The notes under the pieces were generated by a model. It was not told the origin of the DNA and did not search any database. It saw nothing but the letters and a program-made list of their open reading frames with translations. DNA of 64,000 nucleotides. It comes from an uncultured Dialister sp. (GTDB lineage: Bacteria; Bacillota; Negativicutes; Veillonellales; Dialisteraceae). The stretch covers positions 555-64,554 of the forward strand of contig NZ_UPZP01000001.1 of assembly GCF_900538805.1 (NCBI RefSeq), read 5' to 3'. A program made the position numbers and the translations under genes. Shown one piece after another: positions 4,957-48,879 of this stretch (positions are counted from its first letter, which is position 1; each line of letters starts with the position of its first letter).

Positions 4957-5540
4957 TTTGCTTTACAAAGGTGGGGCCTCTGCGCCCCACGGGTTCAGAG
5001 GGTTCCCCTTCGGGCGCGAAAGGTTCTTAAGATTGGCCAGCCTAAAGGCCGGAGGGTTCTTAAGTTTGACGGGCCCAGGGCCCGAAGGTTGTGGTATCGC
5101 TCTCGGGGGCGATAATTATGAAGTAAGCGTTACGTACTTGCCTTCCCGCCCTCACCGTCATTCTGAACGCAGTGAAGAATCTCGGTAAGTGCCGTAGTTG
5201 AAGAAATCGGTAGTGAATACCAGTCGGCGGGAAGGCTGCGTCATTAGGCGTCGAAAAATAGCGGTATCAGTTCTTTCGGCCCTATCCTCAGGGCTTCGCC
5301 CAGCTCCTTCCTGAGGAAGGAGCCAGCGTTACGGGATTTACGCTATTGTCACCATGACTACATGGCGAAGAGCAAGAGCCTCCTTCCACAAGCAGAAGTC
5401 CTGCAGAGGGCTTCTGGGCCGGGCTATTATGTGAGCAAAGCCTGCACATAAAGCGAACACCTTAATGCCCGGCCAGCAGGTGGCGCCGTTAGGCGACGGA
5501 GGATAGGGGCGTGGATTAGACGTCAGACGTCAAACTAAAT
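4957..5540. repeat. Composite intergenic repeat element, locus 1.
   Basis: Contains GGTTCTTAAG / GGTTCAGAG short tandems, the hairpin atcgctctcgggggcgat, the core CCTTCCCGCC..GTCATTCTGAACGCAGTGAAGAATC..CAGTCGGCGGGAAGG, and a 200-bp module that recurs at 10570-10760. Confidence 0.8.
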
Positions 5541-14479: not shown

Positions 14480-14519
14480 GTTGATGATAGTTTCGAAATA
14501 ACATTGGAGCGGGAAATAC

Positions 14520-14930
14520 GGTCAGACGGTCAGACATCAGGCTTCAGATGCTGCGGAGCCTTCCTGCGGGGTCCGTCATTCTGAACGCAGTGCTCGCGTC
14601 CCCTTTTAGGGCCACGCAGTGGCGAAGGGGTTCTTCGGTACATGACAGTAGAGGGAAAAAGACAGTCAGACATCAGACTTCAGACGGTCAGACTTCAGGC
14701 TCCGCGGAGCCTTCCTGCCGGGTCCGTCATTCTGAACGCAGTGAAGAATCTCGGTACATGACGGTAGTGAGCCTAATGCCGTTAACTACCGGTGAGCAGG
14801 AAGGCGGAAGAGGCATCACAGCCACGCAGCGTAGAGCAGGGAGCTTTTTTCCGCTCCTCTTCGCTGCGGTCGAAATGACAATAGAGTGTCTGATGTCTGA
14901 TAGTCTGCCTGTCTGATAGAATCCTCAGCC
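14520..14930. repeat. Composite intergenic repeat element, locus 3 (right arm, inverted relative to locus 2).
   Basis: GTCAGAC-type tandems and two copies of the core gtcattctgaacgcagtg... flanked by CCTTCCTGC..GCAGGAAGG. Confidence 0.85.
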
Positions 14931-16049: not shown

Positions 16050-16059
16050 GGAGTCACCT

Positions 16060-16345
16060 CCTTTGGGCCGCTTCGCGGCCCGGGTTCAAAAGGTTCAGTG
16101 GGAAAGGTTGACGGCGCCTTCGGCCCCGAAGGTTCTAAAGGTTCTAAGGTTTGACGCAGCCTGCGGCTGCGAGGGTTGTGGTGGCGGCTGCGCCGCAATT
16201 ACAGCCTGCGTTACATGCCCTGCCTCCCCGCCCCTGCGGTCATACTGAGCGGAGCGAAGAATCTTGGTACCGGCCGATAGTGATGCCAACTAGTCCACCA
16301 GCCCACTAGTTCACCAATCCACTAGCACACCAGCCCACCAGCTCA
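16060..16345. repeat. Composite repeat element, locus 4.
   Basis: ggccgcTTCGgcggcc hairpin, GGTTCAAAAGG tandems, core gtcatactgagcggagcgaagaatcttgg, then CCACTAG-type tandems. Confidence 0.8.
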
Positions 16346-18407: not shown

Positions 18408-18707
18408 GGCGTCCTTCGGGCGCAAAGGTTCTTAAGTTTAACCGGCCTGATGGCCGGAGGGTGTTGGTTTGACAGGCCCTTGCGGGCCTGAGGGTTGTGT
18501 GGAGGGAGAATACTGAGCCCCAGACGAAGAATTCCGGTGCCTGCCAATAGTGATACCCACCAGCCGATAGCCCACTAGCTCACCAGCCCACTAGCTCACC
18601 AGCCCACTAGCCCACCAGCCCACTAGCTCACCAGCCCACCAGCCCACTAGCCCACTAGCCCACTAGCCCACTAGCCCACTAGCCCACCAGCCCACTAAGA
18701 ACATTAT
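18408..18707. repeat. Composite repeat element, locus 5, ending in a long CCCACTAG/CCCACCAG array.
   Basis: GGTTCTTAAG modules and cUUCGg hairpins, followed by ~20 tandem 8-mers (18540-18700). Confidence 0.85.
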
Positions 18708-18723
18708 ATCCAAAATGAGGTAA

Positions 18724-18757
18724 GAAAAAAACGGCGCAGCCCATGCTGCGTCGTTTT
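18724..18757 (-). terminator. Rho-independent terminator downstream of skp.
   Basis: The minus-strand RNA aaaaacgacgcagcatgggctgcgccguuuuuuu forms a hairpin followed by a U-run. Confidence 0.7.
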
Positions 18758-18767
18758 TCCGTTTTCA

Positions 18768-19184
18768 TTATTTTGCCAGTTTCTGGGCAACGGCGGAGGT
18801 TACATCTACGCCGCCGTCTACTACGGCACCCTGTTCAAGGATGATATCCAGTCCCTTTTCCTGACGAACCTGCTGGATGGCTTTCATAATGTCGGAAAGG
18901 ATTGGCTGCATGGCAGCTCTTTCTTTCTGGTCCATTTCCTTCTGCAGTTCTGTAGCAATCTGCTGTTTTTCCTGGTCAGTCTTGCCTGCAGAGCGGCTCT
19001 TGAAAGCTTCTTCTGCCTTCTGGGCAGCGGTTCTCATATCAAGCTGGGCCTTCTGCATTTTCGGATGAGCCTGGAGAAGGGCATTGGAATTTACAAATCC
19101 GATTCCTGCTGCGGAAGCGGAGAACATAGCGCCAAATGCGATCATACCAGCAGCGACAGCTGCTACTGCTTTATTCATTTTCAT
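18768..19184 (-). CDS. skp: OmpH/Skp-family periplasmic chaperone.
   Basis: Signal peptide plus a coiled-coil, lysine- and glutamine-rich 138 aa protein; AGGAGG 6 nt upstream. Confidence 0.75.
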   Translation of the reverse strand: MKMNKAVAAVAAGMIAFGAMFSASAAGIGFVNSNALLQAHPKMQKAQLDMRTAAQKAEEAFKSRSAGKTDQEKQQIATELQKEMDQKERAAMQPILSDIMKAIQQVRQEKGLDIILEQGAVVDGGVDVTSAVAQKLAK

Positions 19185-22174: not shown

Positions 22175-22249
22175 GAAAAAGCACCTCTTTCCACAAGGAA
22201 GCCTACTTACTATTTTTAATTTTATCATAATACCCTTTGTTTGACAAAA

Positions 22250-22800
22250 AAGGGCGGCGGAGCCGGGTTCATGGACACGCCCTGACGGGCGTGAGGGTTC
22301 AAAAGGTTCAAAAGGTTCAAAAGGTTCAGAAGGTTCAAAGGGTGGTGGTATCGCCTTCGGCGATGAGTTTTATAGAATGCCGCTCCGTGGCAAGGAAACA
22401 TAAAGTCAGCATTATGCGACTCCCTCCCGCCGGACATGGTCATTCTAAGCGCAGCGAAGAATCTCGGTACACGGCAGCAGTGAATCACAGGCCGATAAAT
22501 ACCAGTCGGCGGAGAAGTACTACGATTCATACCGTAAACGTCTTAAGCCGGAACACCAGCACACCAGCTCACTAGTCTACGAGAACACTAAGCAGAGCAT
22601 TACATGACTTCCTCCCGCCGGACAGGGTCATTCTGAGCCGTAGGCGAAGAATCTCGGTACGCGGCAGCAGTGACTCATAGGCCGATAAATGCCAGTCGGC
22701 GGAGAAGTACTACAGTACATGCCGATAATGCCTCAGACTAGTACACCAGCTCGCCAGCCCACTAAAGAATCCCAGTCGGCGGGAAGGCATCGTCGGCGCC
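22250..22800. repeat. Composite repeat element, locus 6.
   Basis: GGTTCAAAAG x5, the hairpin atcgccTTCGgcgat, two core copies (gtcattctaagcgcagcgaagaatctcgg / gtcattctgagccgtaggcgaagaatctcgg), each followed by ...ccagtcggcggagaag, and CCACTAG tandems. Confidence 0.85.
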
Positions 22801-23516: not shown

Positions 23517-24300
23517 GGATTTCTCCACTTTATTGTGTCCCCGCTTGCGGGGTGGCAGGCGAACTTGGTTCGTAGGGGAGCAATAGCGACCTGAGAACCA
23601 AGTGAGACGCTTTCCTGTGGAGAAAGGTGGTGGCGTCAGCCACCAAAGGGGGCCCGCAGGGCGCGGCGGGTTGAAGGGTGATGGTGCTATGGGTCCATTC
23701 CGTGGACTGGGTTCATAGGGTTCATAGGGTTCAAGGGTTGTGGATTTCCGCCTTTGGCGGCAATGATTATAAAGTCAGCGTTACATGCTTACCCTTTGTA
23801 TCTCCAGTGCTTTCCTGTCATTTCGAGCGATGGTCATCGCCGGTGTGAATTTCCCTTTACATGAAGCCATTGAAACGGAGTCGAGAAATCTCCTCCCTGA
23901 ATGGCCCCTGTCAATAATGACTGATTTTAGTATAATTCCGGTGTTCCTCCCCTATTAAAGTTCCTTTCTCTGGAATGAGACTGCGTTACGTACACCCCAG
24001 ACAGGTCATTCTGAGCGCCAGCGAAGAATCTTGGTAAGAACTGTAAGTAACATAAACGCCAGTAAATACCGGCAGCCCGGAAAACGTACCAAATGACTCT
24101 TCACTTCCCGCGGCAGTCATTCTGAGCGCCAGCGAAGAATCTTGGTAAGAGCTGTAAGTGACAAGAACGCCAGTAACTACCGGCAGCCAGAAAAGCATGC
24201 TGAATGACTCATCCTCTTCCCTAGAAAACGTCTGAAGCCGGAAGTCTATCTTCTATCTTCTATCTTCTATCTTCTACCTTCTATCGTCTATCTTCTACCT
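23517..24300. repeat. Composite repeat element, locus 7.
   Basis: GC hairpin series, GGTTCATAGG tandems, one copy of the 120-bp unit (23805-23950), two tandem ~110-bp units in reverse orientation (23990-24235), and GATAGAA tandems. Confidence 0.85.
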
Positions 24301-24316
24301 TCCCATATTCTCCACT

Positions 24317-24346
24317 AAAAAAGAGCCCGTGAGAGCTCTTTTTTAG
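24317..24346 (-). terminator. Bidirectional hairpin terminator.
   Basis: aaaaaagagc-ccgtgaga-gctctttttt. Confidence 0.6.
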
Positions 24347-24564
24347 TCTTCCTTATTTTCCTCTTTTTTCCTCATGGCTTCTTCTCTCTGCTTATGGGCC
24401 CGGTCGTAGGCGCCGGTCCGTTTGAGGGCCATGGAAATGACGGCCACCACGGCACAGAGAAGAATGAAAAGGTTCACCGTAGTGACCCCTTCGCCAAAGC
24501 CGATACGGTAGATGGAGTAGAAGAGAACCACCACCAGCAGGAAATCCTGAAATTTTGAAAACAT
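24343..24564 (-). CDS. Small membrane protein (73 aa), hypothetical.
   Basis: Two hydrophobic helices and a basic, charged C-terminus; GGAGGAAGG lies 5 nt before the ATG. Confidence 0.5.
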   Translation of the reverse strand: MFSKFQDFLLVVVLFYSIYRIGFGEGVTTVNLFILLCAVVAVISMALKRTGAYDRAHKQREEAMRKKEENKED

Positions 24565-24655
24565 ACTGCCTTCCTCCGCTCATATATATATTCATACAAT
24601 AGCGGAAAGAAGTGTCTTCGTCAAGTAGGGGAATCGATTAATCCGCGGAAAGCCA

Positions 24656-25447
24656 TTACAGCCCCTTGGGGCTGTCTGCAATTTCCGCCATGCCGTAAAG
24701 AGCCGCTTTTCCCGCAAGCTGTATACGGTTTCCATCCATATGACCGTAAAGCATGCCGCCCCGGGCGGATGCCTGGTAGGCAATAATATCTTTCCTGCCC
24801 AGTTTCTTTGCCCAATAGGGGATGATGTGACAGTGGCCGCTTCCGCACACCGGGTCCTCGTCCACCAGGAGCTTCGGTGCAAAGGAGCGGGACACGCAGT
24901 CCGTATCACGCCCTCCGGCGGTAATGTTGAGGAGCAGTCCCTCCAGTGCCTTTACTCTTTCCATATCCGGCTGTGCCTTCCGAACGTCATCTTCATCGGG
25001 AAGCACGCAGAGCAGGTCCCGTCCCATCCACGCTTCCAGGGGCCTTATGCCTATGGCCTTTTCCATTTCATCCGTCACAGGCACAGGAGTCAGATGATAA
25101 GCGGGGAAATCCATTTCATAAAGGTCCCCCTTCTTCTTCACCGTCAAGGGACCGCTCAGCGTGTCAAAAACCACTTCATCCCTGTCCTTTTCGTAGAACC
25201 GGAAAAGGATATACCCCGAAGTCAGGGTAGCATGGCCGCAGAGGTCGATTTCTCCGCCCGGCGTAAACCAGCGCAGATGGTATCGCCCGCTTTCCCCCTT
25301 CACCATGAAAGCGGTTTCGGAAAAATGATTTTCCCCTGCAATGGCCATCATCATATCATCGGGAATCCATTTCTCCATCACGCACACCGCCGCCTGGTTT
25401 CCCTTAAAAATTTCATCAGTAAATGCGTCGGCCATATACTGTTTCAT
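24656..25447 (-). CDS. PhzF-family isomerase-like protein.
   Basis: MKQYMADAFTDEIFKGNQAAVCV... and ...GEIDLCGHATL are typical of the PhzF/DAP-epimerase-like fold. ATG 25447. Confidence 0.8.
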   Translation of the reverse strand: MKQYMADAFTDEIFKGNQAAVCVMEKWIPDDMMMAIAGENHFSETAFMVKGESGRYHLRWFTPGGEIDLCGHATLTSGYILFRFYEKDRDEVVFDTLSGPLTVKKKGDLYEMDFPAYHLTPVPVTDEMEKAIGIRPLEAWMGRDLLCVLPDEDDVRKAQPDMERVKALEGLLLNITAGGRDTDCVSRSFAPKLLVDEDPVCGSGHCHIIPYWAKKLGRKDIIAYQASARGGMLYGHMDGNRIQLAGKAALYGMAEIADSPKGL

Positions 25448-25593
25448 AGCTCTCACCCTTTCTGCATCACACTTTTCAATCATCTGCACAGCCTGTCCAT
25501 TGACAATATCATAACGCCGCCGTACTATGAAGACAATCTTGAAATTGTATGTATAGCAATTTGATGAAATCTGATTTTGCAAAGGAATATGAT

Positions 25594-26979
25594 ATGCCCA
25601 TCAATTCTTTCGACCATTATCCCCTCTCCTGGAAGCCTGTTTTATCAAGCCTTTCCAAGCCCTACTATCTTTCCCTGGCCGGTGATTTAGAAAAGAAAAT
25701 TCTTTCCGGTGAACTGCCGGAGGGCACCAGGCTCCCGCCGCAGCGCGAACTGGCAGACTATCTGGACCTGAATTATTCCACCATCACCAGGGTGTATAAT
25801 GCCTGCCGCCGGAAAGGACTGGTCTATGGTGTCACAGGTCGTGGCACTTTTGTGGCACCCCATGCTGCCGCATCCATCACCCTTGAGCATCCCTCCAGCC
25901 AAAAGGACATCATAGAAATGGGATTTATCAGCGGGTTTCCGGAACTGGCGGCCCCGGTGGAAACAGCCATGAAAAAAGTGCTTCATCAGAGCTATGTGCG
26001 AAGCCTTCTTTCCTATGAACACCCCTTCGGCTTTCCCCATCAGAGACTGCAGGCAGCAGAATGGCTGTCCCTGCTGGGCGTACATACCGATGCAGAGCAT
26101 ATTATCCTCTTTCAGGGTGCGGAAAATGCATTGACCACCGCCCTCTTTTCCCTTTTCCATCCGGGAGACCGCATTGCAGTAGACACCTACACCTACTCCA
26201 ACTTCATACTCCTTGCCAAAATGAAAGGGCTCTCCCTTGTCCCCATCGCGGGCGACAGGGAGGGCATGATTGCTGATGAACTGGACAGGGCCTGCAGAAA
26301 AATAAAAATTCATGGCATCTACCTCATGCCCTCCTGCTCCAATCCTACCAATATCATGATTTCTCCTGCCCGAAAAGAGGAACTGGCCTATGTGATAAAA
26401 AAGAATCACCTGATATTGATAGAAGACGACCTGTACAGCTGGCTTCGGGCAGAAGAAGGCAGGGCCATGATTTCCATCCATGACCTCACAGGCAGCCGGG
26501 CTTTCTATATTGCCAGCCTTACCAAATGCCTCTGTCCGGGCCTTCGCATCGCCTACGGTGCCTTTACCGATGATATGAAAAGCGACATGGAAGAAGGCTT
26601 TTCCAATATCAGCATCAAAACCTCCTCTCTGGATGCAGAAATCATGAATGAAATGCTTCTGTCCGGCTCCGCCCAAAAGCTGCTGCACCAAAAGGCAGCT
26701 CTGGCCAAAAAGACCTGCTCTCTGTTTGATTCCCTTTTCCCCAGTGTCCCTCCCCAGCCGCCCGGCTACTTCCGCTGGCTTCCCATTTCCGACAGCCGGC
26801 CCTTCGACCAGGTGGAAAAAGAATTTCTACAGCAGGGTATCCACGTTTACCACTCCGGCCGTTTCATGGCCGCGCCTCACGAGGAAAGCAGTTTTCTCCG
26901 CGTATCCCTATGCTCCGCAGGAAATATGGCACGGCTTCGCAGGGGGCTGGAGATAATCAAGAACCATATCCATGCATAA
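25594..26979 (+). CDS. MocR/GntR-family transcriptional regulator with a PLP aminotransferase-like domain.
   Basis: N-terminal winged helix-turn-helix (LPPQRELADYLDLNYSTITRVY) and a C-terminal fold-type-I aminotransferase domain. Divergent from the PhzF gene. Confidence 0.85.
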   Translation: MPINSFDHYPLSWKPVLSSLSKPYYLSLAGDLEKKILSGELPEGTRLPPQRELADYLDLNYSTITRVYNACRRKGLVYGVTGRGTFVAPHAAASITLEHPSSQKDIIEMGFISGFPELAAPVETAMKKVLHQSYVRSLLSYEHPFGFPHQRLQAAEWLSLLGVHTDAEHIILFQGAENALTTALFSLFHPGDRIAVDTYTYSNFILLAKMKGLSLVPIAGDREGMIADELDRACRKIKIHGIYLMPSCSNPTNIMISPARKEELAYVIKKNHLILIEDDLYSWLRAEEGRAMISIHDLTGSRAFYIASLTKCLCPGLRIAYGAFTDDMKSDMEEGFSNISIKTSSLDAEIMNEMLLSGSAQKLLHQKAALAKKTCSLFDSLFPSVPPQPPGYFRWLPISDSRPFDQVEKEFLQQGIHVYHSGRFMAAPHEESSFLRVSLCSAGNMARLRRGLEIIKNHIHA

Positions 26980-29877: not shown

Positions 29878-30546
29878 TTATTTCCTATGGCTTTTGAGGT
29901 ATCCCAGGACGCAGACGGCGAGGGCCAGGAAGGCGGGGAGTCCCGTTTCTATCCAGCTGCCCATCGCATTTTCAATCACCGGACCCAGAACTTTGTCGTG
30001 AAGGAACATGGTGCCGGAGGTCCAGCCAATCATGGCGGCACCGGCGTACATGAGGAAGGGGAAGCGATCCAGCACTTTTCCTATGAGCTGGCTTCCCATG
30101 ACGATGATGGGGATGCTTACCATGAGGCCGAAGACCACCAGAAGGAAATCGCCGTTGGCGGCGCCGGCTACGGAGAGGATGTTATCGATGGACATGAGGA
30201 AATCCGCCAGGATAATGGTTTTCACCGCAGTCCACAAGTTATCGGAGGCTTCAATGTGCGGGTCTTCGTCTCCCGGCGCCAGAAGGTGGATGGCAATGGG
30301 GATGAGGAGGATGCCGCCCAGCACCTGAAGGTAGGGAATGGTGAGAAGCCATACGGCCACAACGGTTAGGACCATGCGGAGCCCTACGGCGCCTATGGTA
30401 CCGATCAGGATCGCTTTTTTCCGCTCCTTTTCCGGGAGGCGGTTGGAAGCCATGGCAATGACCACCGCGTTGTCCCCTCCCAGGGATAAATCCATCAATA
30501 TAATGGCTCCTACGCTGAGCCAGAACTGCAGTGTAAATATTTCCAT
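29878..30546 (-). CDS. TerC-family integral membrane protein.
   Basis: Seven predicted transmembrane helices. The conserved GGDNAVVIA and SIDNILSVAG repeats are present. ATG 30546 with GAAAGGGA upstream. Confidence 0.85.
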   Translation of the reverse strand: MEIFTLQFWLSVGAIILMDLSLGGDNAVVIAMASNRLPEKERKKAILIGTIGAVGLRMVLTVVAVWLLTIPYLQVLGGILLIPIAIHLLAPGDEDPHIEASDNLWTAVKTIILADFLMSIDNILSVAGAANGDFLLVVFGLMVSIPIIVMGSQLIGKVLDRFPFLMYAGAAMIGWTSGTMFLHDKVLGPVIENAMGSWIETGLPAFLALAVCVLGYLKSHRK

Positions 30547-30649
30547 GGTTGTCCCTTTCACAATAAAAGAAACGGCATGATTCACTGCCGTTTCTTTCCA
30601 ATGAATAACTGTCAGTCATTATTATAGTCGTTCTTATGGAGGTGTCAAA
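30547..30649 (-). promoter_or_regulatory. Sigma-70 promoter plus a short leader with an intrinsic-terminator-like hairpin upstream of the TerC-family gene.
   Basis: Minus strand reads TTGACA-17-TATAAT. The leader carries gaaagaaacggcagugaaucaugccguuucuuuuauug before the SD. Confidence 0.45.
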
Positions 30650-30661
30650 TGGATGAGAAAT

Positions 30662-31360
30662 TAGACGATAGAAGATAGAAGATAGATGGTAGATGGTAGA
30701 CGATAGAAAATAGATGATAGACTTCAGACTTCTGGCTTCCGGCTTCAGACGTTTTCTAAGGAAGAGGATGAGTCATTCAGCATGCTTTCCGGACTGCCGG
30801 TATTTATTGGCATTTCTGTCACTTGCGGTTCTTACCAAGATTCTTCGCTTCGCTCAGAATGACTGCCGCGGAAGGAGAAGAAAGAAGCATTCGGCATGCT
30901 TTCCGGACTGCCGGTATTTACTGGCATTTCTGTCACTTACGATTCTTGCCAAGATTCTTCGCTGGCGCTCAGAATGACCGGCGTGGAGAGGAGAAAGAAT
31001 CATTCAGCATGCTTTCCGGACTACCGGTATTTACCGGCGTTCCTGTCAATTACGACTCTTACCAAGATTCTTCGCTGGCGCTCAGAATGACCGGCGTGGA
31101 GAGGAGAAAGAAGCATTCAGTATGCTTTCCGGACTGCCGGTATTTATTGGCGTTCCTGCCACTTGCAACTCTTACCAAGATTCTTCGCTGGCGCTCAGAA
31201 TGACCGGCGTGGAGAGGAGAAAGAATCATTCGGCATGCTTTCCGGACTGCCGGTATTTACCGGCGCTTCTATCACTTACAATGCTTACCAGGATTCTTCG
31301 CTGGCGCTCAGAATGACCGGCCCCGGGAACGGCGCCAAGGACACGAAGCCGGAAACCTAA
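30662..31360. repeat. GATAGAA / GCCGGAA tandems followed by a 5 x ~113-bp tandem array.
   Basis: Units begin at 30781, 30896, 31009, 31122 and 31235. Each reads ATGCTTTCCGGACTGCCGGTATTTA-(variable 25 nt)-ACCAAGATTCTTCGCTGGCGCTCAGAATGACCGGCGTGGAGAGGAGAAAGAA. Confidence 0.9.
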
Positions 31361-31367: not shown

Positions 31368-31964
31368 TCACTCCTCTGCCTTTCCGATGGTGCCCAGTTT
31401 TTCCAGAAGGTCGATGTGGATGGGTGTGTAGGTGCCGGGGTGTTTTCTCAGGTAGAACTGTTCTTCTTCCGGCGCTTCGTAGAAGTTTTCCAGCGGTTTC
31501 ATTTCTGTCCTGATTTTCGGGCGTCTTCCGCCTTCGCCTTCAAATTCGTTGAAAACGATGGCGGCGTCGGTCATGCGGCGGGTGATGCCCCGGTTCTGCA
31601 GGAAGATGAGGTAGTAGGAGATCTGCATGGTGTCTTCGCGGCTGGTGTAGTAAACGCCGCTTTTGAACTGGGGCCCCACGGCTTTTCCCTGGATTCCGTC
31701 GGTGTAGGGGTTGATGATGGTGAAGAAGAGGGAGAGGAGGCTCACGATGTCGATTTTCTTTGGGTTGTAGATAACCTGTATGCATTCTCTGCCTTCCACT
31801 TTCCCGCTGTATATGTCTTCTTTGGAGGGCGCCTCCCGGCTGCAGTTGGCAAAGCCCGCCCGCACCCGGGCTACGCCTTTGACCCGGGAGAAGACTTCCT
31901 GCAGTCCGTAGTAGGGTCCTCCTGCCAGGTACAGTTCTTTCATAAATGCTCCGTTAATGTACAT
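31368..31964 (-). CDS. msrA: MsrA-like protein (peptide methionine sulfoxide reductase fold) lacking the canonical catalytic Cys.
   Basis: Homologous to MsrA across the whole length (EA.Q..Y.P, G.QY.S.IYY), but the GCFWG motif reads AGGPYYG. AAAGGAGGAA lies 6 nt before ATG 31964. Confidence 0.75.
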   Translation of the reverse strand: MYINGAFMKELYLAGGPYYGLQEVFSRVKGVARVRAGFANCSREAPSKEDIYSGKVEGRECIQVIYNPKKIDIVSLLSLFFTIINPYTDGIQGKAVGPQFKSGVYYTSREDTMQISYYLIFLQNRGITRRMTDAAIVFNEFEGEGGRRPKIRTEMKPLENFYEAPEEEQFYLRKHPGTYTPIHIDLLEKLGTIGKAEE

Positions 31965-33212: not shown

Positions 33213-35408
33213 TTAACCTTCCCTGGCTTCAGCTTTAGCGCGGTCTACAAGAATCTGCAGAAGTTCGATGCAGCACTTCGGGATGTTGGTGCCCGGTCCG
33301 AAGATGGCGGTGGCGCCATGGTCATAGAGGAACTGGTAGTCCTGGGGCGGGATAACGCCGCCGATGCAGACGAGGATATCGCTGCGGCCCCGTTTCTTCA
33401 GTTCTTCCACCAGAGCAGGAAGCAGTGTCTTGTGGCCTGCTGCCAAAGAGGAGAAGCCAACAATATGAACATCGTTATCTACGGCATCCTGGGCAGCTTC
33501 TTCCGGTGTCTGGAAGAGAGGACCTACGTCCACGTCCCAGCCCATGTCGGCAAAGGAGGATGCCAGTACCTTCTGGCCTCTGTCGTGTCCGTCCTGGCCC
33601 ATCTTGCAGAAGAAGATACGGGGGCGGCGGCCTTCGAGCTGTTCAAATTCATCAATCAGTTTCTTGGCCTTGTCAAACTGTCCGTTATCCTGGAATTCGC
33701 TGGAGTAAACGCCGGATACGGTATGGATGGTGGCGTTGTAGCGGCCGGATACCTTTTCCACGGCGTCGGAAATTTCACCAAGGGAGCAGCGGTCATGGGC
33801 TGCCTGTACGGCGGCATCCAGAAGGTTGCCGTTTTCGCGGCTTTCCGCACATTTGGTGATGTGTTCCAGATCCCGGCGTACCTTTTCGGGGTCCCGGATG
33901 GAGCGAAGTTTTTCAAGGCGCTTAATCTGTGCGTTCCGAACGGCGGTGTTATCTATGGAGAGGACGTTCAGCGGATCTTCCTTGGCCAGACGGTACTTGT
34001 TCAGGCCTACGATGGTTTCTCTGCCGGAGTCGATGTCTGCCTGGCGGCGGGCAGCGCATTCCTCGATACGCATCTTCGGAAGGCCGGTGGCAATGGCCTT
34101 GGCCATGCCGCCCAGGGATTCCACTTCCTGGATATGGGCCCAGGACCGTTTAATCATTTCATTGGTCAGGTATTCCAGGTAGTAGGAGCCGCCCCAGGGG
34201 TCGATAATCTTGCAGACTTTAGTTTCATCCTGGATATAGAGCTGTGTATTTCTTGCCAGACGGGCGGAGAAATCTGTCGGCAGTGCGATGGCTTCATCCA
34301 GCGCATTGGTGTGCAGGGACTGGGTGTGGCCCAGAGCTGCGGACATGGCTTCCATACAGGTCCTGGTGATGTTGTTGAAGGGGTCCTGTTCGGTGAGGGA
34401 CCAGCCGGAGGTCTGGGAATGGGTACGGAGGGCCATGGATTTAGGATTCTTGGCGCCGAAGCCCTTCAGAATCTTGGCCCACAGCACTCTGGCGGCCCTC
34501 ATTTTGGCCACTTCCATGAAGTAGTTCTTGCCCTGGTCCCAGAAGAAGGACAGACGTTTGGCGAAGGCATCCACCGGCAGTCCTGCTTTTTCGCCGCAGC
34601 GGATGTATTCCATGCCGTCGGCCAGGGTGTAGCCCAGTTCCAGGTCGCAGGTAGCGCCGCATTCCTGGATGTGGTAGCCGGAAATGGAAATGGAGTTGAA
34701 TTTCGGCATGTACTTGGTGGTGTATTCGAAGATATCGCCGATGATGCGCATGGACATGGCCGGCGGATAGATGTAGGTGTTGCGGACCATGAATTCCTTC
34801 AGGATATCATTCTGGATGGTGCCCTGGAGAATCTTCCTGTCCACGCCCTGTTCAATGCCGGCGCAGATGAAGAAGGCCAGGATAGGAAGGACGGCGCCGT
34901 TCATGGTCATGGATACGGACATCTGGTCCAGCGGAATGCCATCGAAGAGGATGTTCATATCCAGCATGGAACATACCGATACGCCTGCCTTGCCCACATC
35001 GCCTACAACGCGGGGGTTGTCCGCATCGTAGCCGCGATGGGTTGGAAGGTCGAATGCAATGGACAGCCCTTTCTGTCCGGCAGCCAGGTTTCTTTTATAG
35101 AAAGCGTTGGATTCTTCGGCGGTGGAGAAGCCGGCGTACTGGCGTACGGTCCATGGACGGAATACGTACATGGTGGAGTATGGACCTCTCAGGAAGGGCG
35201 GGATGCCGCTCATGAAATCCAGATGATTGCATTCTTTGTAAATGTCCTTGGTGTAGAGCGGACCTACGGGGATACGTTCCAGGGTGGTGTCATACAAATC
35301 ATTGTAGGATTTGCCGGTGGTTTCTTCCAGGTCCTTTTTCCAGGTGTCGTAATCGCAGGAAGGATGGGCTTCCAGGTCGAGTTTTGTGAAATCGGGATTC
35401 ATTGCCAT
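33213..35408 (-). CDS. mutB: Methylmalonyl-CoA mutase large (catalytic, B12-binding) subunit.
   Basis: TIM-barrel substrate domain ([40 protein letters not shown]) and a C-terminal cobalamin domain with DGHDRG. AGAGGAGG upstream. Confidence 0.95.
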
Positions 35409-35409
35409 A

Positions 35410-37689
35410 TTATTTTACCTCCTCTTCCGTAATCTTCATGCCTTTTTCTCTCTGAAGACTGCGGATGATCTCATAGCAGTTTGCCTTCACACTGATGAAA
35501 TCGTCAACACCGGCATCTCGATATGTCTGTTCCAGGTCCTTAGGCGCTGCGCCTGCCAGGAAAACCTTCCCTTTGCCGAGTACTTTCTTCAGACGGGGAG
35601 CCAGGGCCGGTACGTCTTCCGGATAGGTATCATCCTTGGAGCAGATGACGGCGCAGTCATAGGGTGTGCCCTTGTCATCGCAGCCTTTCTTCAGTGCTTC
35701 CACGCATTTATCCCAGCGGGAGCCCGGCTTTCCTTCATCATCCTGGAAGCCGTTGTTCAGATGGACATTGAATTCGCCTACCTGCAGGAAGGAGGTGGAG
35801 AAGTCGGCCCTTGCCTTGTGCTGCGGGATGCGGCCCATGTTGGCCAGGAATACTTCCACGTTCTTTCCTGTTTCCTTCTTGTAATTTTCCGTATCGAAGC
35901 GGAGCCGTTCGAACCGCTCTGTCCAGCGGTGTTCCGTAATGGGACGAACCTTTTCCACTTCTCCCTCCGGAGTGATGGCTTTGTATACCTCGTTCTGGGT
36001 GGCGCCGGCAGAGAAGGCTTCGATGGCTTTATCCAGCTTCCCTTCCGTGGGAGCTGCTTCCAGCTCTTCCAGCTTCCTGCCCAGATATTCCTTATCCATA
36101 TCCTTTCTGTAGTCCTCTACGGCCTTCACAAGCTGTTTCTTCAGGGCAGCCGTATCTTCCGGTCTTGGTTCGATGAGCTCTTCTGCCATGTTCGGATACA
36201 TGTTGTTGCCTACGGCCCGGTCCTTGCGGAAATCCAGTGCCTTGAAGCGCTGTTTCAGGATGGCAAGAATCTGTTCCTGCGGATGCTCTTCCTTGAGAGC
36301 CTTGGTGAAGCCGCCCATGGATTCGATTTTCTGGAATTCCTGCCAGATTTTTTCGGCCATTTCCTTGGTCAGGTGTTCCAGTGCCCAGGAGCCGCCGGCT
36401 GGGTCGATAGGACGGAGCATGCCGAATTCTTCCTGCAGGATAATGTGGGCATTTCTTGCAATACGGCGGGAGAATTCATCGCCCTTTCTCACCGTTTCAT
36501 CGTAAGGTTCGTTTTCGTAGGTATCTACGCCGCCTACCACAGCGGAGAACATGGCGGTGGTATTTCTAAGCATGTTCACGCCGGCATCAAAAATGGTGCG
36601 GTAGAAATAGGCAGGGCGGGAATGGATGCGGCAGCTTCTGTCCGCCTCTTCTGCACCGAAGGCCTTCATAATGTTGGCCCATACCTCCCGGGCAGCCCGG
36701 AGTTTGGCAATTTCGATGAAGAAAATGGTGCCCACGTTGAAGCCGAAGTTGATGGACTGGGCAATATCGTGGATGGAAATTCCTCTCTTTTCCATTTCAC
36801 GGATATATTCCACAGCCATGGCAAATGTATAGGCCACTTCCTGCACCGCATTGGCGCCGCCTCTGGAGAATACTTCGCTCCTCGGCATAATGGTGCGGAG
36901 GCCCGGTGCATTCTTCCTTGCCCAGCGGATGGATTCCGCCATGTCGTCGTAGCAGGCAGAAAGGGGTTTTGGCAGGGTGCCGTTCTTGGCCAGCTGGGAC
37001 AGGGGGTTGGCGCCGATGACGCCATGAAGTTTGCTGGTATCTTTTCCCTTTGCTTTCAGTGCAGCAGATACCAGCGCAATCATGCGGATGGAAGAAGGTC
37101 CGCAGTACATCATGAATGGATATGTTTCAAGGTCAAGACCGTCAAGAAGGCGGGCCATGTCTTCCAACGTGGTAATGGACACACCGGTATCCCCCGGTTT
37201 TACGGCGTCCTTCACATCCACGCCATCGGTGGAAGCACTGTCAAGGCGGACATTGTACACCGTGGAACCTTTGTCGATTTCATGTTTCAGGAGCTCATTA
37301 TTTTCAGAAGGCAGCGTTTCGTCGCAGGCCTGGGCAATCCCCCAGGGCGCTTCCTTGTAGCCGTTCACCGAAGCGCCGCGGAGATAATCGCCCATACCCG
37401 GATAATCGTCGGTGGGCAGGTCCTTATCCATAGCCACCGGGCCTGTGCGGAGCGTGTAGATAGGATCAAAGGTAATGCCTTCGTAGGTCTTTGTATACAT
37501 AAGCTTATCGAAGGGCTTCCCCTTCAGAAGAGCATTGCACGCATCAATCCATTCCTCCCATGTGGGCGGTGTAAACTCATCAAATTTAACTGCCGGGAAA
37601 TCCGTTTTTCCTTCTGATTTTTTAAGGATAGCTTCCAGTTCTTTATCTGTCAGCTGTTTTACCGGTTCCTGGGATTTCTGTTCATCCAT
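35410..37689 (-). CDS. mutA: Methylmalonyl-CoA mutase small subunit.
   Basis: Mutase-fold paralogue with no DxHxxG at the C-terminus; ends 1 nt before mutB. ATG at 37689 (MDEQKSQEP) with AAGGAGGA 8 nt upstream. The track ORF starts 8 codons earlier without an SD. Confidence 0.88.
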
Positions 37690-37802
37690 GAATATATCCT
37701 CCTTTGACAACATCAGAGAAGTAAAGAGTCCGATGATTTCAGTTCTTTTCCGGACAATTTCACCACTTGCGATGTTTCACCTCCTTCAAAGGTATTTACA
37801 TT

Positions 37803-38065
37803 AAAAAAGCCGGCACCTATAGATGGCAGCCGGTAAAAGGGACGCTGTGTCCCAATCCCCTCCCCATCGCTCGCAGGTTTGCGGAAACACTGAGTAACCA
37901 GTGCTTCCTTAACGGTGATTCATTGACAGATAGTTCTCCTGGCTCGGATTCCTCATGCCTGCTCGCCTTCCCAGGTTTCCCCAGTGACATCATTGAGCAG
38001 GTACTCCTCCTTACAGTGGCGGGACCGCTCCGGCTTATACCGGATTCTCTTTTATGCTTACGCAT
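37803..38065 (-). ncRNA. Candidate cobalamin riboswitch with an intrinsic terminator in the 5' leader of mutA-mutB-meaB.
   Basis: The minus-strand RNA contains ..AGAGAAUCCGGUAUAAGCCGGAGCGGUCCCGCCACUGUAAGG.. matching the conserved GGUG.AA.UCC...GC.G.CCCGC.ACUGUAA.G core. A B12-box-like GAGCCAGGAGAACU lies ~75 nt downstream. The hairpin accggcugccaucuauaggugccggcuuuuuu follows. Confidence 0.5.
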
Positions 38066-38104
38066 CTGTCAGCAATGTGAAATTGTCCAAAAGACTACAG
38101 TCAC

Positions 38105-39078: not shown

Positions 39079-39495
39079 TTAGCCAACGGTGAACAGCGGA
39101 TCGCCGCCCTGTACGGACTGGCCTTCAGTAACCTGCATGGAGGTAACCTTGCCATCGCAAGGAGCCATGATCGGGTTGCCCATCTTCATAGCTTCCAGAA
39201 CGAGGACTTCGTCGCCGGCTGCTACTGCATCACCAACATGTTTGTTGATGCGGATAACTTTACCAGGCATCGGAGCTTCAACGGATTCGCCTGCACCTGC
39301 AGGAGCTGCTGCCGGAGCGGGAGCCGGAGCCGGTGCTGGAGCCGGAGCCGGAGCTGCTGCCGGAGCCGGAGCTGCTGCTGGAGCTGGAGCTGCTTTCGGA
39401 GCTGCTGCCGGAGCCGGAGCTGCTGCTGCAGCGCCGCCATCTTTAACTACTACATCGTAATCCTGGCCGTTAACTGTTACAGTAAATTTTCTCAT
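39079..39495 (-). CDS. mmdC: Biotin carboxyl carrier subunit (methylmalonyl-CoA decarboxylase gamma / 1.3S-like) with an Ala/Pro linker.
   Basis: C-terminal biotinyl domain with EAMKM; long (AP)n linker; AGGAGG 7 nt upstream. Confidence 0.9.
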   Translation of the reverse strand: MRKFTVTVNGQDYDVVVKDGGAAAAAPAPAAAPKAAPAPAAAPAPAAAPAPAPAPAPAPAPAAAPAGAGESVEAPMPGKVIRINKHVGDAVAAGDEVLVLEAMKMGNPIMAPCDGKVTSMQVTEGQSVQGGDPLFTVG

Positions 39496-41973: not shown

Positions 41974-42912
41974 TTATTTGAATATTTTGCCCACGATGGA
42001 ATCAACGACTGTGTACGGATCGGTTTTCCGTTCAAAGACTTGTTCCACGTAGTCATTAAATTCACCCGTCTTGGAGATATTTTCTTCAATATGACGGGAA
42101 ATGCGGTCGTGAATCATTTCAAGCATTTCGGAGCGAGCCCGATCGCGTCTTCTTTCATCAAGAACGCCGGATTCTTCCAAGTACTTGCGATGATCACCCA
42201 GGGCTGCTACTACATCATCTACACCCTGGTCTTTGTTCGCAATCGTCCGTTCAATCGGAGGACGCCAGTTCTGGGCTTCGCCTAAATCCAGCATCATTTC
42301 GATTTCAACGTTCAGACGATCTGCGCCGTCACGATCACATTTATTGATGACAAATACATCACCAATTTCGAGGATACCTGCTTTGATAGCCTGAATATCG
42401 TCACCAAGTCCAGGTACGAGCACAACAAGTGTTGTATCCGCATTTTTGACGATATCGACTTCTGACTGTCCTACGCCTACTGTTTCGATGAAAATTACAT
42501 CGAGACCGAAAGCATCCATCAGTTTTACCGCATCAGCTGTCTTGCGGGAAAGTCCCCCAAGGCTGCCGCGCGTGCCCATACTACGGATATAAACACCCTT
42601 ATCCAAGGTCAGGTCGTTCATTCTGATACGGTCGCCGAGGATGGCGCCGCCGGAGAACGGACTGGTAGGATCGACTGCAACGATACCTACGGTTTTACCC
42701 TGTTCACGGTACTTCTTGATCAGGGCATCTGACAGTGTGCTCTTACCCGCACCAGGTGCACCAGTGATACCGATGACCTGTGCACGACCGGTATGATGAT
42801 AGATATCTTTCATGATATCTTCAAAACCATCCCGTTCGTCTTCAACGATGGTAATTGCTCTCGCTAAGGCACGTCTGTTTCCATTCCAAAAATCTTTCAT
42901 TGAGAATTCCAT
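41974..42912 (-). CDS. meaB: Second MeaB/ArgK-type mutase-associated GTPase.
   Basis: P-loop GAPGAGKST, DPTSPFSGGAILGD, NKCD. ATG 42912 (MEFSMKDFW). Confidence 0.85.
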   Translation of the reverse strand: MEFSMKDFWNGNRRALARAITIVEDERDGFEDIMKDIYHHTGRAQVIGITGAPGAGKSTLSDALIKKYREQGKTVGIVAVDPTSPFSGGAILGDRIRMNDLTLDKGVYIRSMGTRGSLGGLSRKTADAVKLMDAFGLDVIFIETVGVGQSEVDIVKNADTTLVVLVPGLGDDIQAIKAGILEIGDVFVINKCDRDGADRLNVEIEMMLDLGEAQNWRPPIERTIANKDQGVDDVVAALGDHRKYLEESGVLDERRRDRARSEMLEMIHDRISRHIEENISKTGEFNDYVEQVFERKTDPYTVVDSIVGKIFK

Positions 42913-43033
42913 GGATACACCGCCTTTTCGAAGAGTAAAGAGAAATAATATAGTTGCAAGGGGCTGAGGATTGCCCCCAGTCCCAAGCAGCCACATTACA
43001 CCATAACGCTAGTCAATAACAGCTGTAAGCAGA

Positions 43034-43432
43034 TTATTTCTTAACGTTTTCTTTGATGAAGTCAATAACTTTCTTTGTTGGGGTGCCAGGTGTGAAGATA
43101 GCTTTTACGCCAGCTTTTTCGAGGCCCGGGATATCGTCTTCGGGGATTACGCCGCCGCCGATAACCAGAACGTCGCCCATTCCTTTAGCTTTCAGTGCTT
43201 CTACAACTTCCGGGAAAAGGGTGTTGTGAGCGCCGGAGAGCAGGGACAGAGCTACTACATCAACGTCTTCTGCGTCTGCTGCTTCAACAATCTGTTCTAC
43301 AGTCTGACGAAGACCGGTGTAAATAACTTCCATGCCTGCGTCGCGAAGTGCACGGGCAATAACTTTTGCACCACGATCGTGTCCATCAAGACCCGGTTTA
43401 GCTACGAGTACTCTGATACGTTTGTCTGCCAT
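43034..43432 (-). CDS. Acyl-CoA mutase small subunit (standalone cobalamin-binding domain).
   Basis: 132 aa with DGHDRG and GGVIP motifs; GGAGG upstream. Confidence 0.9.
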
Positions 43433-43496
43433 TGTAAATTACCTCCAGAAATATGTTGAGTAATGTAATATTCTCTTGCTTCAGGCTGCCCTAAGA

Positions 43497-45158
43497 TTAA
43501 AGGGTGTTGTGCGGTTTGTATTCGCCGAATACTTTACGGAGAACGCCGCAGATTTCGCCTTCGGTGCAGTAAGCACGTACGCAGTCGAGGATGACTGGCA
43601 TAAGGTTAACATGGTCAGGACCTTCAGCCGGAGTCTGAGCTGCTTTTTCAAGTTTAGCCAGTTCTTCAGCAACCTTAGCCTGGTCACGGTTTTCCTTATC
43701 CTTAGCGAGCTGAGCTTTCTTTCTTTCGCCAACGGAAGCATCAATCTTCAGCAGGCCGGTAACCGGCGGTTCTTCCATGGTGAACTTGTTGACGCCAACG
43801 ATTGTTCTTTCGCCGGATTCAACAGCCATCTGCCAAGCATAAGCAGAATCCTGAATTTCTTTCTGGATGTAGCCTTTATCAATAGCTTCTACAGCGCCGC
43901 CCATTTCGTCAATCTTCTTGATGTAAGCCATAACTTCTTCTTCGATGGCGTTGGTCAGTGCTTCAACATAGTAGGAGCCGCCGAGCGGATCAACTACGTC
44001 AGCCAGGCCGGATTCGTAAGCAACGATCTGCTGGGTACGGAGAGCGATGGTTACGGATTCAGTGGTCGGAAGAGCCAGAGCTTCATCGCGGGAGTTGGTG
44101 TGCAGGGACTGGGTGCCGCCCATAACTGCTGCTGCGGTCTGGAGAGCAACACGGATGATGTTGTTGTTCGGCTGCTGAGCGGTCAGCATGGAGCCTGCGG
44201 TCTGGGTGTGGAAACGAAGTTTCATGGACTTCGGGTTTTCAGCATGGAATCTTTCTTTCAGGATTCTAGCCCAGATACGACGGGAAGCACGGAACTTAGC
44301 AACTTCTTCGAGTACGTTGTTGTGAGCGTTCCAGAAGAAGGACAGACGTGGAGCGAATTCATCAATCTTCATGCCTGCTTTCAGAGCTGCTTCGATGTAA
44401 GCAATACCATCGGCAATGGTGAATGCAACTTCCTGAGCAGCGGTGGAACCAGCTTCACGGATATGGTAGCCGGAAATGGAAATGGTGTTCCACTTCGGTA
44501 CGTTTGCGGAGCAGTATTCGAAGATATCGGTAATCAGACGCATGGACGGTTTAACCGGGAAAATGTAGGTGCCGCGTGCTGCGTATTCCTTGAGGATATC
44601 GTTCTGAATGGTGCCGCGGAGTGCGGATGCCGGAACGCCCTGTTTTTCAGCTACTGCAATGTACATAGCCAGCAGGACGGAAGCCGGTGCGTTGATGGTC
44701 ATGGAAGTGGAAACTTTGCCAAGATCAATGCCGTCGAACAGTCTTTCCATATCGTAGAGGGAGTCGATAGCTACGCCTACTTTACCAACTTCGCCAGCAG
44801 ACATTTTGTCATCGGAGTCATAGCCGATCTGGGTCGGGAGGTCGAATGCAACGGACAGGCCGGTGCCGCCGTTAGCAATCAGGTATTTATAACGTTTGTT
44901 GGATTCTTCAGCGGTGGAGAAGCCAGCGTACATACGCATGGTCCACAGACGGCCGCGATACATGGTGGGCTGTACGCCACGGGTGTATGGATATTCACCA
45001 GGGAAACCGAGGTCTCTTTCATAGTCGAAACCTTCGAGATCGAGTGGTGTGTACAGGTTCTTATGTTTCAGACCAACTCTTTCCGGATGTTTTGCAACCT
45101 GTTTTGCATATTCTGCATTGTAGGCATCAAGTTTAGCTTTCAGGGATTCGTTAGACAT
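43497..45158 (-). CDS. Acyl-CoA (methylmalonyl-CoA-type) mutase large catalytic subunit, lacking a B12 domain (split mutase).
   Basis: TIM-barrel mutase domain ([40 protein letters not shown]); ends without a cobalamin domain. AGGAGG upstream. Confidence 0.9.
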
Positions 45159-48801: not shown

Positions 48802-48879
48802 GGATTCCTCCGGTATATGAAATCGGTTACATTTCTTTTATTATATCGGACCCCGCCGCCGGTAGCAATGAAAATATGT

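Follow-up and report, generated by a model that had tools for sequence, protein, structure and literature searches.

Repetitive extragenic palindromic (REP) sequences tagged with CGTC or TGTC form a superfamily that was described by Di Nocera, De Gregorio and Rocco (2013, BMC Genomics 14:522; PMC3733652). In the sections of that paper used here, CGTC REPs have a plain stem of 8-9 bp, a loop of 4-5 nt and an unpaired 3-nt tail with the consensus CCA, and they occur in 5 phyla (PMC3733652). They are mostly arranged as head-to-head dimers with 20-100-nt spacers, whereas head-tail dimers are negligible and clusters are rare (PMC3733652). The same sections state that the defining authors did not find a dedicated transposase, and they file the dRS3 repeat of Neisseria as CGTC-1, one of four families (CGTC-1 to CGTC-4; PMC3733652). 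The present analysis concerns a tandem array of five REP-derived units located between msrA and the gene of a TerC-family membrane protein in 64 kb of DNA from an uncultured human-gut Dialister species. This whole stretch of DNA is referred to as the window.

The dRS3 hairpins (ATTCCC-N8-GGGAAT) are also part of neisserial intergenic mosaic elements (NIMEs), in which they are separated by RS elements of 50-150 bp (Bentley et al. 2007; PMC1797815). The length of NIME arrays varies between strains, the arrays are located at recombination end points, and the description of 2007 regarded them as confined to Neisseria (PMC1797815). Filamentous phages use dRS3 as an integration site with a transposase/recombinase that the phage encodes (PMC1797815). 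REPs, bacterial interspersed mosaic elements (BIMEs) and REP doublets (REPINs) are mobilised by REP-associated tyrosine transposases (RAYTs, TnpA_REP; Nunvar 2010, PMC2817692; Bertels and Rainey 2011, PMC3116915), and enterobacterial REPs carry GCGNAGC loops (PMC2817692).

The Dialister array is REP-derived, NIME-like and variable in number; its general kind is already known, but the variant may be new. The array is probably a non-coding satellite that was formed by head-to-tail amplification of one member of a REP-type family, that shrinks and grows, and that provides a substrate for recombination. The REP-type family occupies intergenic regions of the gut Dialister genome.

Structure of the array

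A single tandem array with a period of 113, 4.8 copies, 89% matches and a score of 842 was identified by Tandem Repeats Finder at positions 30773-31321, and a separate repeat search returned spacings of 113, 113 and 113 within it. The array belongs to the minus strand and lies between the msrA stop and the TerC promoter, in the same orientation as both flanking genes (Table 1). The units start, counted from the first G of GTCATTC on the minus strand, at 31317, 31204, 31091, 30978 and 30863, and the last unit ends with ...GAATGACTCATCCTCTTCC at 30760. The periods range from 113 to 115 bp, with the first period (from 30782) being 114-115, and one hairpin is separated from the next by 87-89 bp. 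Five head-to-tail units had been proposed in the initial annotation of this DNA. Their number is confirmed and their starts are correct within 1 nt, as ATGCTTTCC is located at 30782, not at 30781.

Units 2-4 are 91-92% identical to each other in pairwise alignments, and unit 1 is 86-90% identical to them. The differences are concentrated in an internal stretch of ~30 nt, in agreement with the variable internal segment with point differences noted initially; among the alignment columns with two states there are 23 transitions and 12 transversions. The linker upstream of unit 5, CCGCGGCA, is similar to units of the array close to 24 kb in the window and of the arrays that precede the TerC gene in other strains. 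The unit at the msrA flank is incomplete, because only its first ~87 nt are shared, followed by msrA flanking sequence. At its other end, the array is terminated by a conserved tail module, TTAGAAAACGTCTGAAGCCGGAAGCC..., which is likewise found at the end of the 24005-24220 array and of TerC-side arrays in other strains. The array is non-coding, as had been claimed, because its period is not a multiple of 3, the open reading frames (ORFs) drift between frames, and those that cross the array have no match in Pfam.

Table 1. Coordinates of the array, its parts and related features in the window; units are numbered in minus-strand order, beginning with unit 1.
Feature	Position	Strand	Basis
Five REP-derived units in tandem	30760..31317	-	Tandem Repeats Finder, sequence, unit alignment
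Core hairpin, unit 1	31292..31317	-	Fold, family covariation, mini-hairpin rule
Core hairpin, unit 2	31179..31204	-	Coordinates from sequence
Core hairpin, unit 3	31066..31091	-	Coordinates from sequence
Core hairpin, unit 4	30953..30978	-	Coordinates from sequence
Core hairpin, unit 5, GCGAAGC triloop	30839..30863	-	Sequence
Conserved tail module TTAGAAAACGTCTGAAGCCGGAAGCC...	30720..30759	-	Module comparison
Degenerate 7-mer tract (TCTATCN)n, after the array	30662..30729	-	Tandem Repeats Finder, repeat search
Sigma-70-type promoter of the TerC gene, perfect TTGACA-16-TATAAT, directly downstream of the 7-mer tract	30621..30648	-
msrA (PF01625 PMSR), stop codon at 31368, 50 nt upstream of the first unit	31368..31964	-
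TerC-family membrane protein gene, downstream of the array	29878..30585	-
Sister array, two units, period 111, inverted orientation, 6.4 kb from the array	24005..24220	+
Solo core hairpin in full composite element, closed by pairing arms CCTTCCCGCC / GGCGGGAAGG	5157..5181	+
Further solo cores	14726-14750, 16239-16263, 22439-22463, 22627-22653, 53237-53261	all +

Organization of the unit

Every unit opens, on the minus strand, with GTCATTCTGAGCGCCAGCGAAGAATC. The core hairpin of 25-26 nt has the sequence GTC-ATTCT-GA-GCGCCAGC-GA-AGAAT-C, in which a 5-bp Watson-Crick stem (ATTCT/AGAAT) is continued by tandem G.A/A.G oppositions, two G-C pairs and a GNNA loop (GNA in unit 5). The G.A/A.G oppositions are in the 5'-YGAR-3' context on both sides of the hairpin; tandem G.A pairs in this context are sheared. 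The apex of the hairpin, GCGCCAGC or GCGAAGC, obeys the GCGNNAGC / GCGNAGC rule of DNA mini-hairpins, which are unusually stable (PMC13037366).

The hairpin is followed by a variable spacer of ~60 nt, a small CCGG-CAGT-CCGG hairpin, a segment ending in ..GCATGCTGAATGAY, and a pyrimidine-rich linker. The final 9 nt of ..GCATGCTGAATGAY match the reverse complement of the unit start at eight of nine positions (GTCATTCTG / CTGAATGAC). The part of the unit ending in ..CTGAATGAC is the decayed outer end of what is elsewhere an inverted partner hairpin. The unit may thus be viewed as an intact CGTC/TGTC-tagged REP hairpin joined to a poorly constrained ~60-nt spacer, a decayed partner end and the pyrimidine-rich linker.

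Variation between strains

The locus was compared with ten other gut metagenome contigs that encode an identical MsrA protein, four of which were aligned; their flanking DNA shares ~97% identity with that of the window. The array that follows msrA contains three recognisable cores in five of the contigs, four in another four and five in the remaining one; in contig L006, which has four, the spacing suggests a fifth, degenerate unit. The initial expectation that the copy number may differ between strains is therefore borne out by the 3-5 units at this site in ten other assemblies. Such gain and loss of units would make the locus a variable-number tandem repeat (VNTR). Units may be gained and lost by replication slippage or by unequal homologous recombination between the 113-bp repeats, as suggested by their head-to-tail structure and by the series of alleles.

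In all ten contigs, the msrA-side array is followed by seven genes, behind which the same unit forms another direct array that precedes TerC. The seven genes encode LamB/YcsF (pxpA), Nramp, pxpB, pxpC, a biotin carrier, a biotin carboxylase and a D-Glu cyclase. The TerC-side array has 1-3 recognisable cores, some of which are separated by extra modules. Both arrays are present on one contig, as L004 and L263 are overlapping pieces of scaffold_8 of ERZ28657890; contigs L001 and L011 also overlap, with 99% identity. The seven-gene cluster is absent from the window and from the independent 178-kb scaffold L262, which has the order msrA-array-TerC. The array of L262 is formed of two units, an extra module and two more units, one of which contains a miniature inverted-repeat transposable element (MITE). 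The segment 30654-30999 of the window is homologous to the array on the msrA side in L010 as well as to that on the TerC side in L011, which places the junction within the array. The presence and absence of the cluster are most simply accounted for by recombination between the two direct arrays. Considering the copy-number differences, the second array at TerC and the cluster junction within the array, the array therefore probably provides a substrate on which recombination acts to remove neighbouring genes or to insert them again.

Additional rearrangements were observed close to units of the family. The MITE in the last array unit of L262 (L262:4200-4365) is ~170 nt long and has the terminal inverted repeats GGGAAGCACTGATTAA.../...TTAATCAGCGCTTCCC, with an apparent duplication of CTAG. 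In the gut contigs L145, L163, L168 and L201, family elements are truncated by the same MITE end, and for this reason the MITE seems to target these repeats. The genes for a GntR-aminotransferase and PhzF after sucD (window 24343-26979) vary in their presence, with four contigs lacking both genes and one lacking only that of GntR. This polymorphism of gene content (L259-L268) adjoins the repeat region at 24 kb.

A junction of GTCATT(C) with TTCGGACCTATCC occurs at L260:3585-3600, L260:3780-3795, L262:3930-3945 and L263:3975-3990. At these positions the hairpin is interrupted after the tag and another module is joined to it, with an intact GTCATTC... present 75-160 nt further on. The search for GTCATT breakpoints was confounded by loop-length variants and by coding matches of GTCATT, and only the junction of GTCATT(C) with TTCGGACC was recurrent. 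The junction may have arisen once and been inherited, or it may hint at cleavage at the tag.

The repeat family in the window

The 13-nt core GTCATTCTGARCG is present in the window in 15 copies, when up to one mismatch is allowed, compared with 0.17 copies in shuffled sequences. All 15 cores are intergenic and located between ORFs with Pfam matches, which are housekeeping genes. Together with the array, they bear out the earlier notion of a satellite-like amplification; the amplified repeat module is one that also occurs dispersed in the genome. Tandem duplications are found repeatedly in the window (2 x 111, 2 x 190, 2 x 120 and 2 x 151) and in gut contigs (3 x 128 in L239 and 2 x 127 in L155).

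The sister array at 24005-24220 is followed by the same tail module and then by a 7-mer tract (24245-24302). The sister array, previously delimited as 23990-24235, was correctly recognised as the reverse complement of the 113-bp array: the arms are 105-113 nt long and 81-85% complementary. In contrast, the relationship that had been proposed to the 2 x 120-bp array (5621-5865) and to the copy at 23805-23950 is not significant. It involves 13-26 nt (CCNGTCATTYYGAGCG); of 1000 shuffles, 95-201 attain the local alignment score of the 113-bp and 120-bp units, and a higher score is obtained with the reverse complement.

The comparison of 44 distinct copies of the Dialister-type element, from the window and from gut metagenome contigs, indicates a composite element with the order ..AGCGTTACGGG.., CCTTCCCGCC, ~6 nt, core hairpin, TCTCGGTA, variable hairpin, TAAATACCAGTC, GGCGGGAAGG. 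The A-T and T-A pairs of the core stem are invariant in all 44 copies, and one further core pair covaries, being G-C in 31 copies and A-T in 11 and unpaired in the other 2. The loop variants seen in Dialister copies match GCGNAGC or GCGNNAGC. The pyrimidine and purine arms of the composite element pair with about -20 to -30 kcal/mol in solo copies and with -8 to -14 kcal/mol in the array units. Cognate arms pair slightly better than non-cognate ones (permutation p = 0.003), and the solo elements have a stem-closed fold with z = -3 to -4. The closing stem is a real complementarity; however, because it is weak in the array units, no structured RNA is claimed. A three-helix structure of the element was rejected, as RNAalifold retained the core hairpin only and hand-drawn helices were no better than column shuffles.

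Most of the long intergenic regions of the window are mosaics of repeat modules (5010-5420, 16050-16350, 18420-18770, 22230-22700, 23520-24350, 48805-49090 and 53005-53485). The modules are ordered as (GGGTTCARA)n or GGTTCTTAAGRTTGAC repeats with a GGCC hairpin, a GGTATCGCC-N4-GGCGAT hairpin, TATAAAGTCAGCGTTACGGG, the core element and microsatellite tracts. The tracts consist of a 7-mer (TCTATCT), an 8-mer (CCCACTAG) or a GCCGACA-type repeat, and 7-, 8- and 9-mer tracts occur. Two cores (14575-14650 on the plus strand and 10910-10982 on the minus strand) contain an insertion of ~22 nt in the hairpin, with CGCAGTG on both sides. Together, these insertion-bearing cores constitute an inverted repeat of 105 nt with 90% complementarity, the two halves of which (10947-11051 / 14506-14610) flank gyrA.

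Conservation of the hairpin across phyla

The pattern GTCATTCYGARCG-N3-4-CGARGAATC was searched in species-representative genomes and in viral contigs of IMG/VR, and a longer pattern was used for metagenomes. At least 120 stretches were found in each of the three collections. The matches listed come from more than 20 phyla as well as from viral contigs, and include Nitrospirota, Chloroflexota, Acidobacteriota, Planctomycetota, Verrucomicrobiota, Bacteroidota, Bacillota, Desulfobacterota, Gemmatimonadota, Omnitrophota and Fibrobacterota. Alpha- and Betaproteobacteria, the candidate phyla radiation, a metagenome-assembled genome of Nanoarchaeota and others are also among the matches listed. In the same matches listed, the facing degenerate positions (Y/R) pair as T-A 79 times and as C-G 54 times, with 3 mismatches, the 3-nt loops are NAG in all but one case, i.e. 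GCGNAGC, and 94 of 144 cores have an inverted partner at most 250 nt away.

Covariation was assessed in 700 distinct instances in which only the left arm was constrained and the right arm was read freely. The change of T6 to C in the left arm is accompanied by a compensating G in 79 instances and by a non-compensating A in 14. For T5 to C, the compensating G occurs 34 times and the non-compensating A 3 times; for G11 to A, the compensating T occurs 64 times and the non-compensating C 19 times; and for C7 to T, the compensating A occurs 33 times and the wobble partner G 16 times. The compensating changes in the stem indicate that the local hairpin is under selection. It is selected across bacteria, most likely as a folded single strand that is bound by some protein. 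Right-arm transitions to T.G are about as frequent as those to C.A in the 700 instances, and because of this equality they favour neither RNA nor single-stranded DNA (ssDNA) as the selected fold.

Paired elements are 60-125 nt long, have the form (T)GTCATTC...GAATGAC(A), and fold as one long hairpin, with z = -12.5 for that in L076. Their right arms often have compensated stem variants of their own (ATCCT/AGGAT, ATGCT/AGCAT and ACCCT/AGGGT). The base before GTC in the cross-phylum cores (n = 145) is T in 114, C in 19, A in 6 and G in 6. The tail after GAAT has a constant C and reads CTC in 67 cores, CCC in 20, CTA in 15, CTG in 14, and CTT and CCA in 10 each. The complete cross-phylum elements have no consistent flanking duplication, and 18 cross-phylum loci compared with Rfam yielded only a tRNA. 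An autonomous parent element was considered and rejected: the two core-flanked loci that were inspected hold the ordinary genes purC and polyhydroxyalkanoate (PHA) synthase. No hairpin split by an insertion of 0.3-4 kb and no long element bounded by the arms were found in ~1.7 Mb of loci.

Comparison with known repeat systems

The hairpin resembles CGTC REPs in its tag, its stem opening and its genomic distribution. The unpaired (C/T)GTC tag is present in the cross-phylum cores, and the solo Dialister copies at 5157 and 14726 read CGTC. GTC is invariant in the array units, preceded by G in four of them (CCGGTC) and by A in the remaining one (GGCAGTC). A-T and T-A pairs open the stem, and ATTCY-GA-GC / GC-GA-RGAAT amounts to nine stacked positions, of which seven are Watson-Crick pairs and two are G.A. 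The cross-phylum copies are extragenic, occur in several phyla and are mostly head-to-head pairs with spacers of 20-100 nt. With the GC/GC pairs counted as part of the stem, the loop has 3 nt (GNA) or 4 nt (GNNA), and the short unpaired tail, after its constant C, is mostly not CCA. The array and the Dialister family differ from CGTC REPs in being single hairpins within a larger composite unit that is arranged head-to-tail. The tandem G.A pairs and the mini-hairpin apex are further differences from the published description, which was used here rather than the consensus figure of that paper. The host is a Negativicute, and the hairpin occurs in more than 20 phyla and in viral contigs among the matches listed, as opposed to 5 phyla.

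The array shares with NIMEs the intergenic ATTC.../...GAAT hairpins of ~20 nt, which occur here every ~113 bp with 87-89 bp between them. It also shares the strain-variable number of repeats at syntenic sites, the position at recombination end points and next to variable genes, and the mosaic structure of intergenic regions. However, a single unit is repeated here, with 86-92% identity, instead of many RS families, although some TerC-side alleles interleave a second module. The Dialister hairpin is ATTCT-N11/12-AGAAT, inside which is GA-GCGNNAGC-GA, and only the ATTC/GAAT frame is common with dRS3. The neighbours are metabolic genes, not surface antigens, and dRS3 has a known phage enzyme.

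The REPs and REPINs mobilised by RAYTs are similar to the present family in that they are abundant extragenic imperfect palindromes with a conserved unpaired 5' tetranucleotide, inverted doublets of ~60-125 nt and tandem-reiterated clusters. Unlike in REPs, the tag is (T/C)GTC and not GTAG, and no RAYT was detected in the scanned ORFs of the window. REPINs are lineage-specific, whereas the present hairpin is near-identical across phyla, and BIMEs alternate in orientation, whereas the array is strictly head-to-tail. MIRU-VNTRs (mycobacterial interspersed repetitive units) and pneumococcal BOX elements are intergenic tandem repeats of ~40-110 bp that occur at several loci in the orientation of the flanking genes, are modular and strain-variable, and can be used for typing; MIRUs carry short overlapping ORFs. 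The sequences of MIRU-VNTRs and BOX are unrelated to the array, and they are not known to involve a hairpin conserved across phyla.

The description of the unit as a possible MITE module fits only loosely. The unit ends have only 8/9 nt in common, no target-site duplication or consistent flanking duplication was seen, and no long arm-bounded element was found; MITE membership was therefore rejected, and the CGTC-tagged REP or NIME kind fits better. A literature search for the core DNA, for typical translations (HSERSEES-like) and for Dialister repeats retrieved no relevant publication.

Alternative explanations for the array

It is possible, though unlikely, that the array was built by an enzyme recognising the hairpin, with units added at the hairpin. 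Such an enzyme could be a recombinase/transposase of the dRS3/NIME type, a RAYT-like HUH nuclease or an IS110-type enzyme. Every array of the family has exactly one hairpin per period, the unit boundaries are within a few nt of the GTC tag, and in the recurrent junctions with TTCGGACC the other module is joined right after the tag. That the hairpin is conserved in more than 20 phyla and viral contigs, among the matches listed, would require a partner that is conserved, too. With its tandem G.A pairs and its mini-hairpin apex, the hairpin is similar to the imperfect ssDNA hairpins of HUH enzymes, enterobacterial REPs share GCGNAGC, and dRS3 is targeted by the transposase/recombinase of filamentous phages (PMC1797815). 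However, none of the ORFs of the 64-kb window that were scanned with Pfam has a cas domain or a domain of a transposase or recombinase, the two inspected core-flanked loci contain ordinary genes, and no hairpin is split by a long insertion in the ~1.7 Mb of loci. In addition, the defining authors found no dedicated transposase for CGTC-type REPs, in the sections of their paper used here (PMC3733652), and the GTCATT junctions are few and perhaps derive from one inherited event.

The units might instead act as RNA, which we consider improbable. Their hairpins, in the 3' untranslated region of msrA, would protect the operon mRNA from 3' exonucleases or cause termination or insulation before the TerC promoter, or each unit would be a small RNA (sRNA). 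Transcription is likely to read through into the array, because the stretch that separates it from the msrA stop has no intrinsic terminator on the minus strand. The units are oriented as both flanking genes, and REPs downstream of genes are known RNA elements, as stated in the sections used of PMC3733652. The stem-closed fold of the solo elements and the slightly better pairing of cognate arms are also consistent with a role of RNA. However, the array units retain little of the closing stem, and a whole unit folded as ssDNA has z = -0.3 to -1.35, which is no better than shuffles. The RNAalifold consensus retains only the 25-nt core hairpin, and the pair counts of other helices are not above those of column shuffles. 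The array has no match to an Rfam family at the gathering threshold, at which the whole window contains only a cobalamin riboswitch located elsewhere, and at E up to 10 the array region has only chance-level snoRNA/lncRNA matches. No promoter was found inside a unit, and the transitions in the right arms of the hairpins show no strand-specific wobble signature, in a selection of instances that constrained only the left arm. Elements of the window are also located in divergent promoter regions, and one of them (16239) is antisense to both neighbours. The initial annotation regarded the unit as structured and likened it to an sRNA. The fold scores and the RNAalifold consensus speak against the former, and the latter is unsupported, because no Rfam family matches.

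An assembly artefact, in which repeats were expanded or collapsed or the msrA-side and TerC-side arrays were falsely joined, is very unlikely. All of the data are short-read metagenome assemblies, the sole contig identical to the window is probably its own source, and the two arrays share units that could mislead an assembler. However, the array is present in more than 10 independent assemblies, with 3-5 units at the same site in ten of them, which come from different studies and assemblers. The units are distinguishable, because they differ by ~10%, and with only 81-88% identity the two arrays of one genome are too divergent to have 141-mers in common. Furthermore, the msrA-array-TerC join recurs in the independent 178-kb scaffold L262. 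It is hardly conceivable that the array encodes a repeat protein or small peptides, or that it is a CRISPR-like repeat-spacer array, since, although ORFs of 64-126 aa cross the units, a 193-aa ORF was called across the array in L010 and conserved unit ends enclose a variable middle, the period of 113-115 changes the frame at each unit, gain or loss of units would break any ORF, no ORF has a Pfam match, the variable segments are homologous to each other, unlike spacers, and the scanned window ORFs include no cas domain.

Head-to-tail amplification of one REP-type family member into a non-coding satellite is thus the probable origin of the array, and we infer that the array as such is without a dedicated cellular function. 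Several points weigh against this explanation. Slippage or unequal crossover, as the way in which units would be added, is an indirect deduction. A role in transcript stability, termination or insulation is conceivable, because the array is positioned between the end of an operon and a perfect promoter. The unit ends are far better conserved than the interior, and the TAAATACCGG segment is nearly invariant across the wider family, which could reflect a function beyond that of the hairpin. The exact unit counts may be off, as all comparison sequences are short-read metagenome assemblies, and L012/L258 (64,375 bp), which alone among the contigs has 100% identity to the window, is probably the source of the window itself. 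The direction of the change at the seven-gene cluster could be either a deletion in the lineage of the window or a Campbell-type insertion of a circle in the others.

Other features of the window

The leader of the TerC gene (30546-30648, minus strand) is short and contains a terminator-like hairpin, AAGAAACGGCA...TGCCGTTTCTTTT, which, judged from its sequence, looks like an attenuator. No yybP-ykoY riboswitch was detected in the leader. In a protein look-up, the version of the TerC protein with an ATG start was not on record, and the version with a GTG start was found only in the contig of the window itself; independent evidence was provided by a look-up of sucC.

The genes upstream of msrA on the minus strand are those of methylmalonyl-CoA mutase, followed by meaB. 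A full-length cobalamin riboswitch (37912-38084, minus strand, 91.8 bits) is located ~200 nt upstream of the methylmalonyl-CoA mutase, meaB and msrA genes. It thus precedes the gene of a B12-dependent enzyme and not one for B12 synthesis or uptake, which is unusual. The window contains two methylmalonyl-CoA mutase systems (33213-37713 and 41974-45158), each with its own MeaB. One of the systems has two large subunits; in the other, the catalytic and the B12-binding parts are separate proteins. The split mutase adjoins the epimerase, carboxyltransferase and biotin carrier of a succinate-to-propionate pathway. The gene of a biotin carrier (39079-39495, minus strand) includes a (GCCGGA)n-type repeat of 6/12/18 nt (39297-39432), which presumably encodes a linker rich in Ala, Pro and Gly.

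Implications for Dialister and for the hairpin family

The array could be used as a VNTR strain marker. It is a hotspot for the presence or absence of a seven-gene metabolic and manganese-uptake cluster in a common human-gut Dialister. The ORFs called across the array are spurious, which is a warning to annotators. Arrays of hairpins and spacers like those of NIMEs extend beyond Neisseria.

To our knowledge, no protein has yet been tied to CGTC-type REPs, and a widespread hairpin family that is under selection is a good place to seek their protein partner. A bolder proposal, which we hold to be rather unlikely, is that the 21-nt hairpin ATTCY-GA-GCGNAGC-GA-RGAAT with the (T/C)GTC tag is a pan-prokaryotic, phage-borne site that folds in ssDNA and is acted upon by a widespread recombinase or nuclease. 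If this is true, the Dialister arrays and the NIME arrays of Neisseria would be footprints of repeated action of the enzyme. The hairpin would then mark swaps of gene cassettes, the pxp/Nramp cluster would be one such cassette, and the junctions after GTCATT would be points of cleavage and joining.

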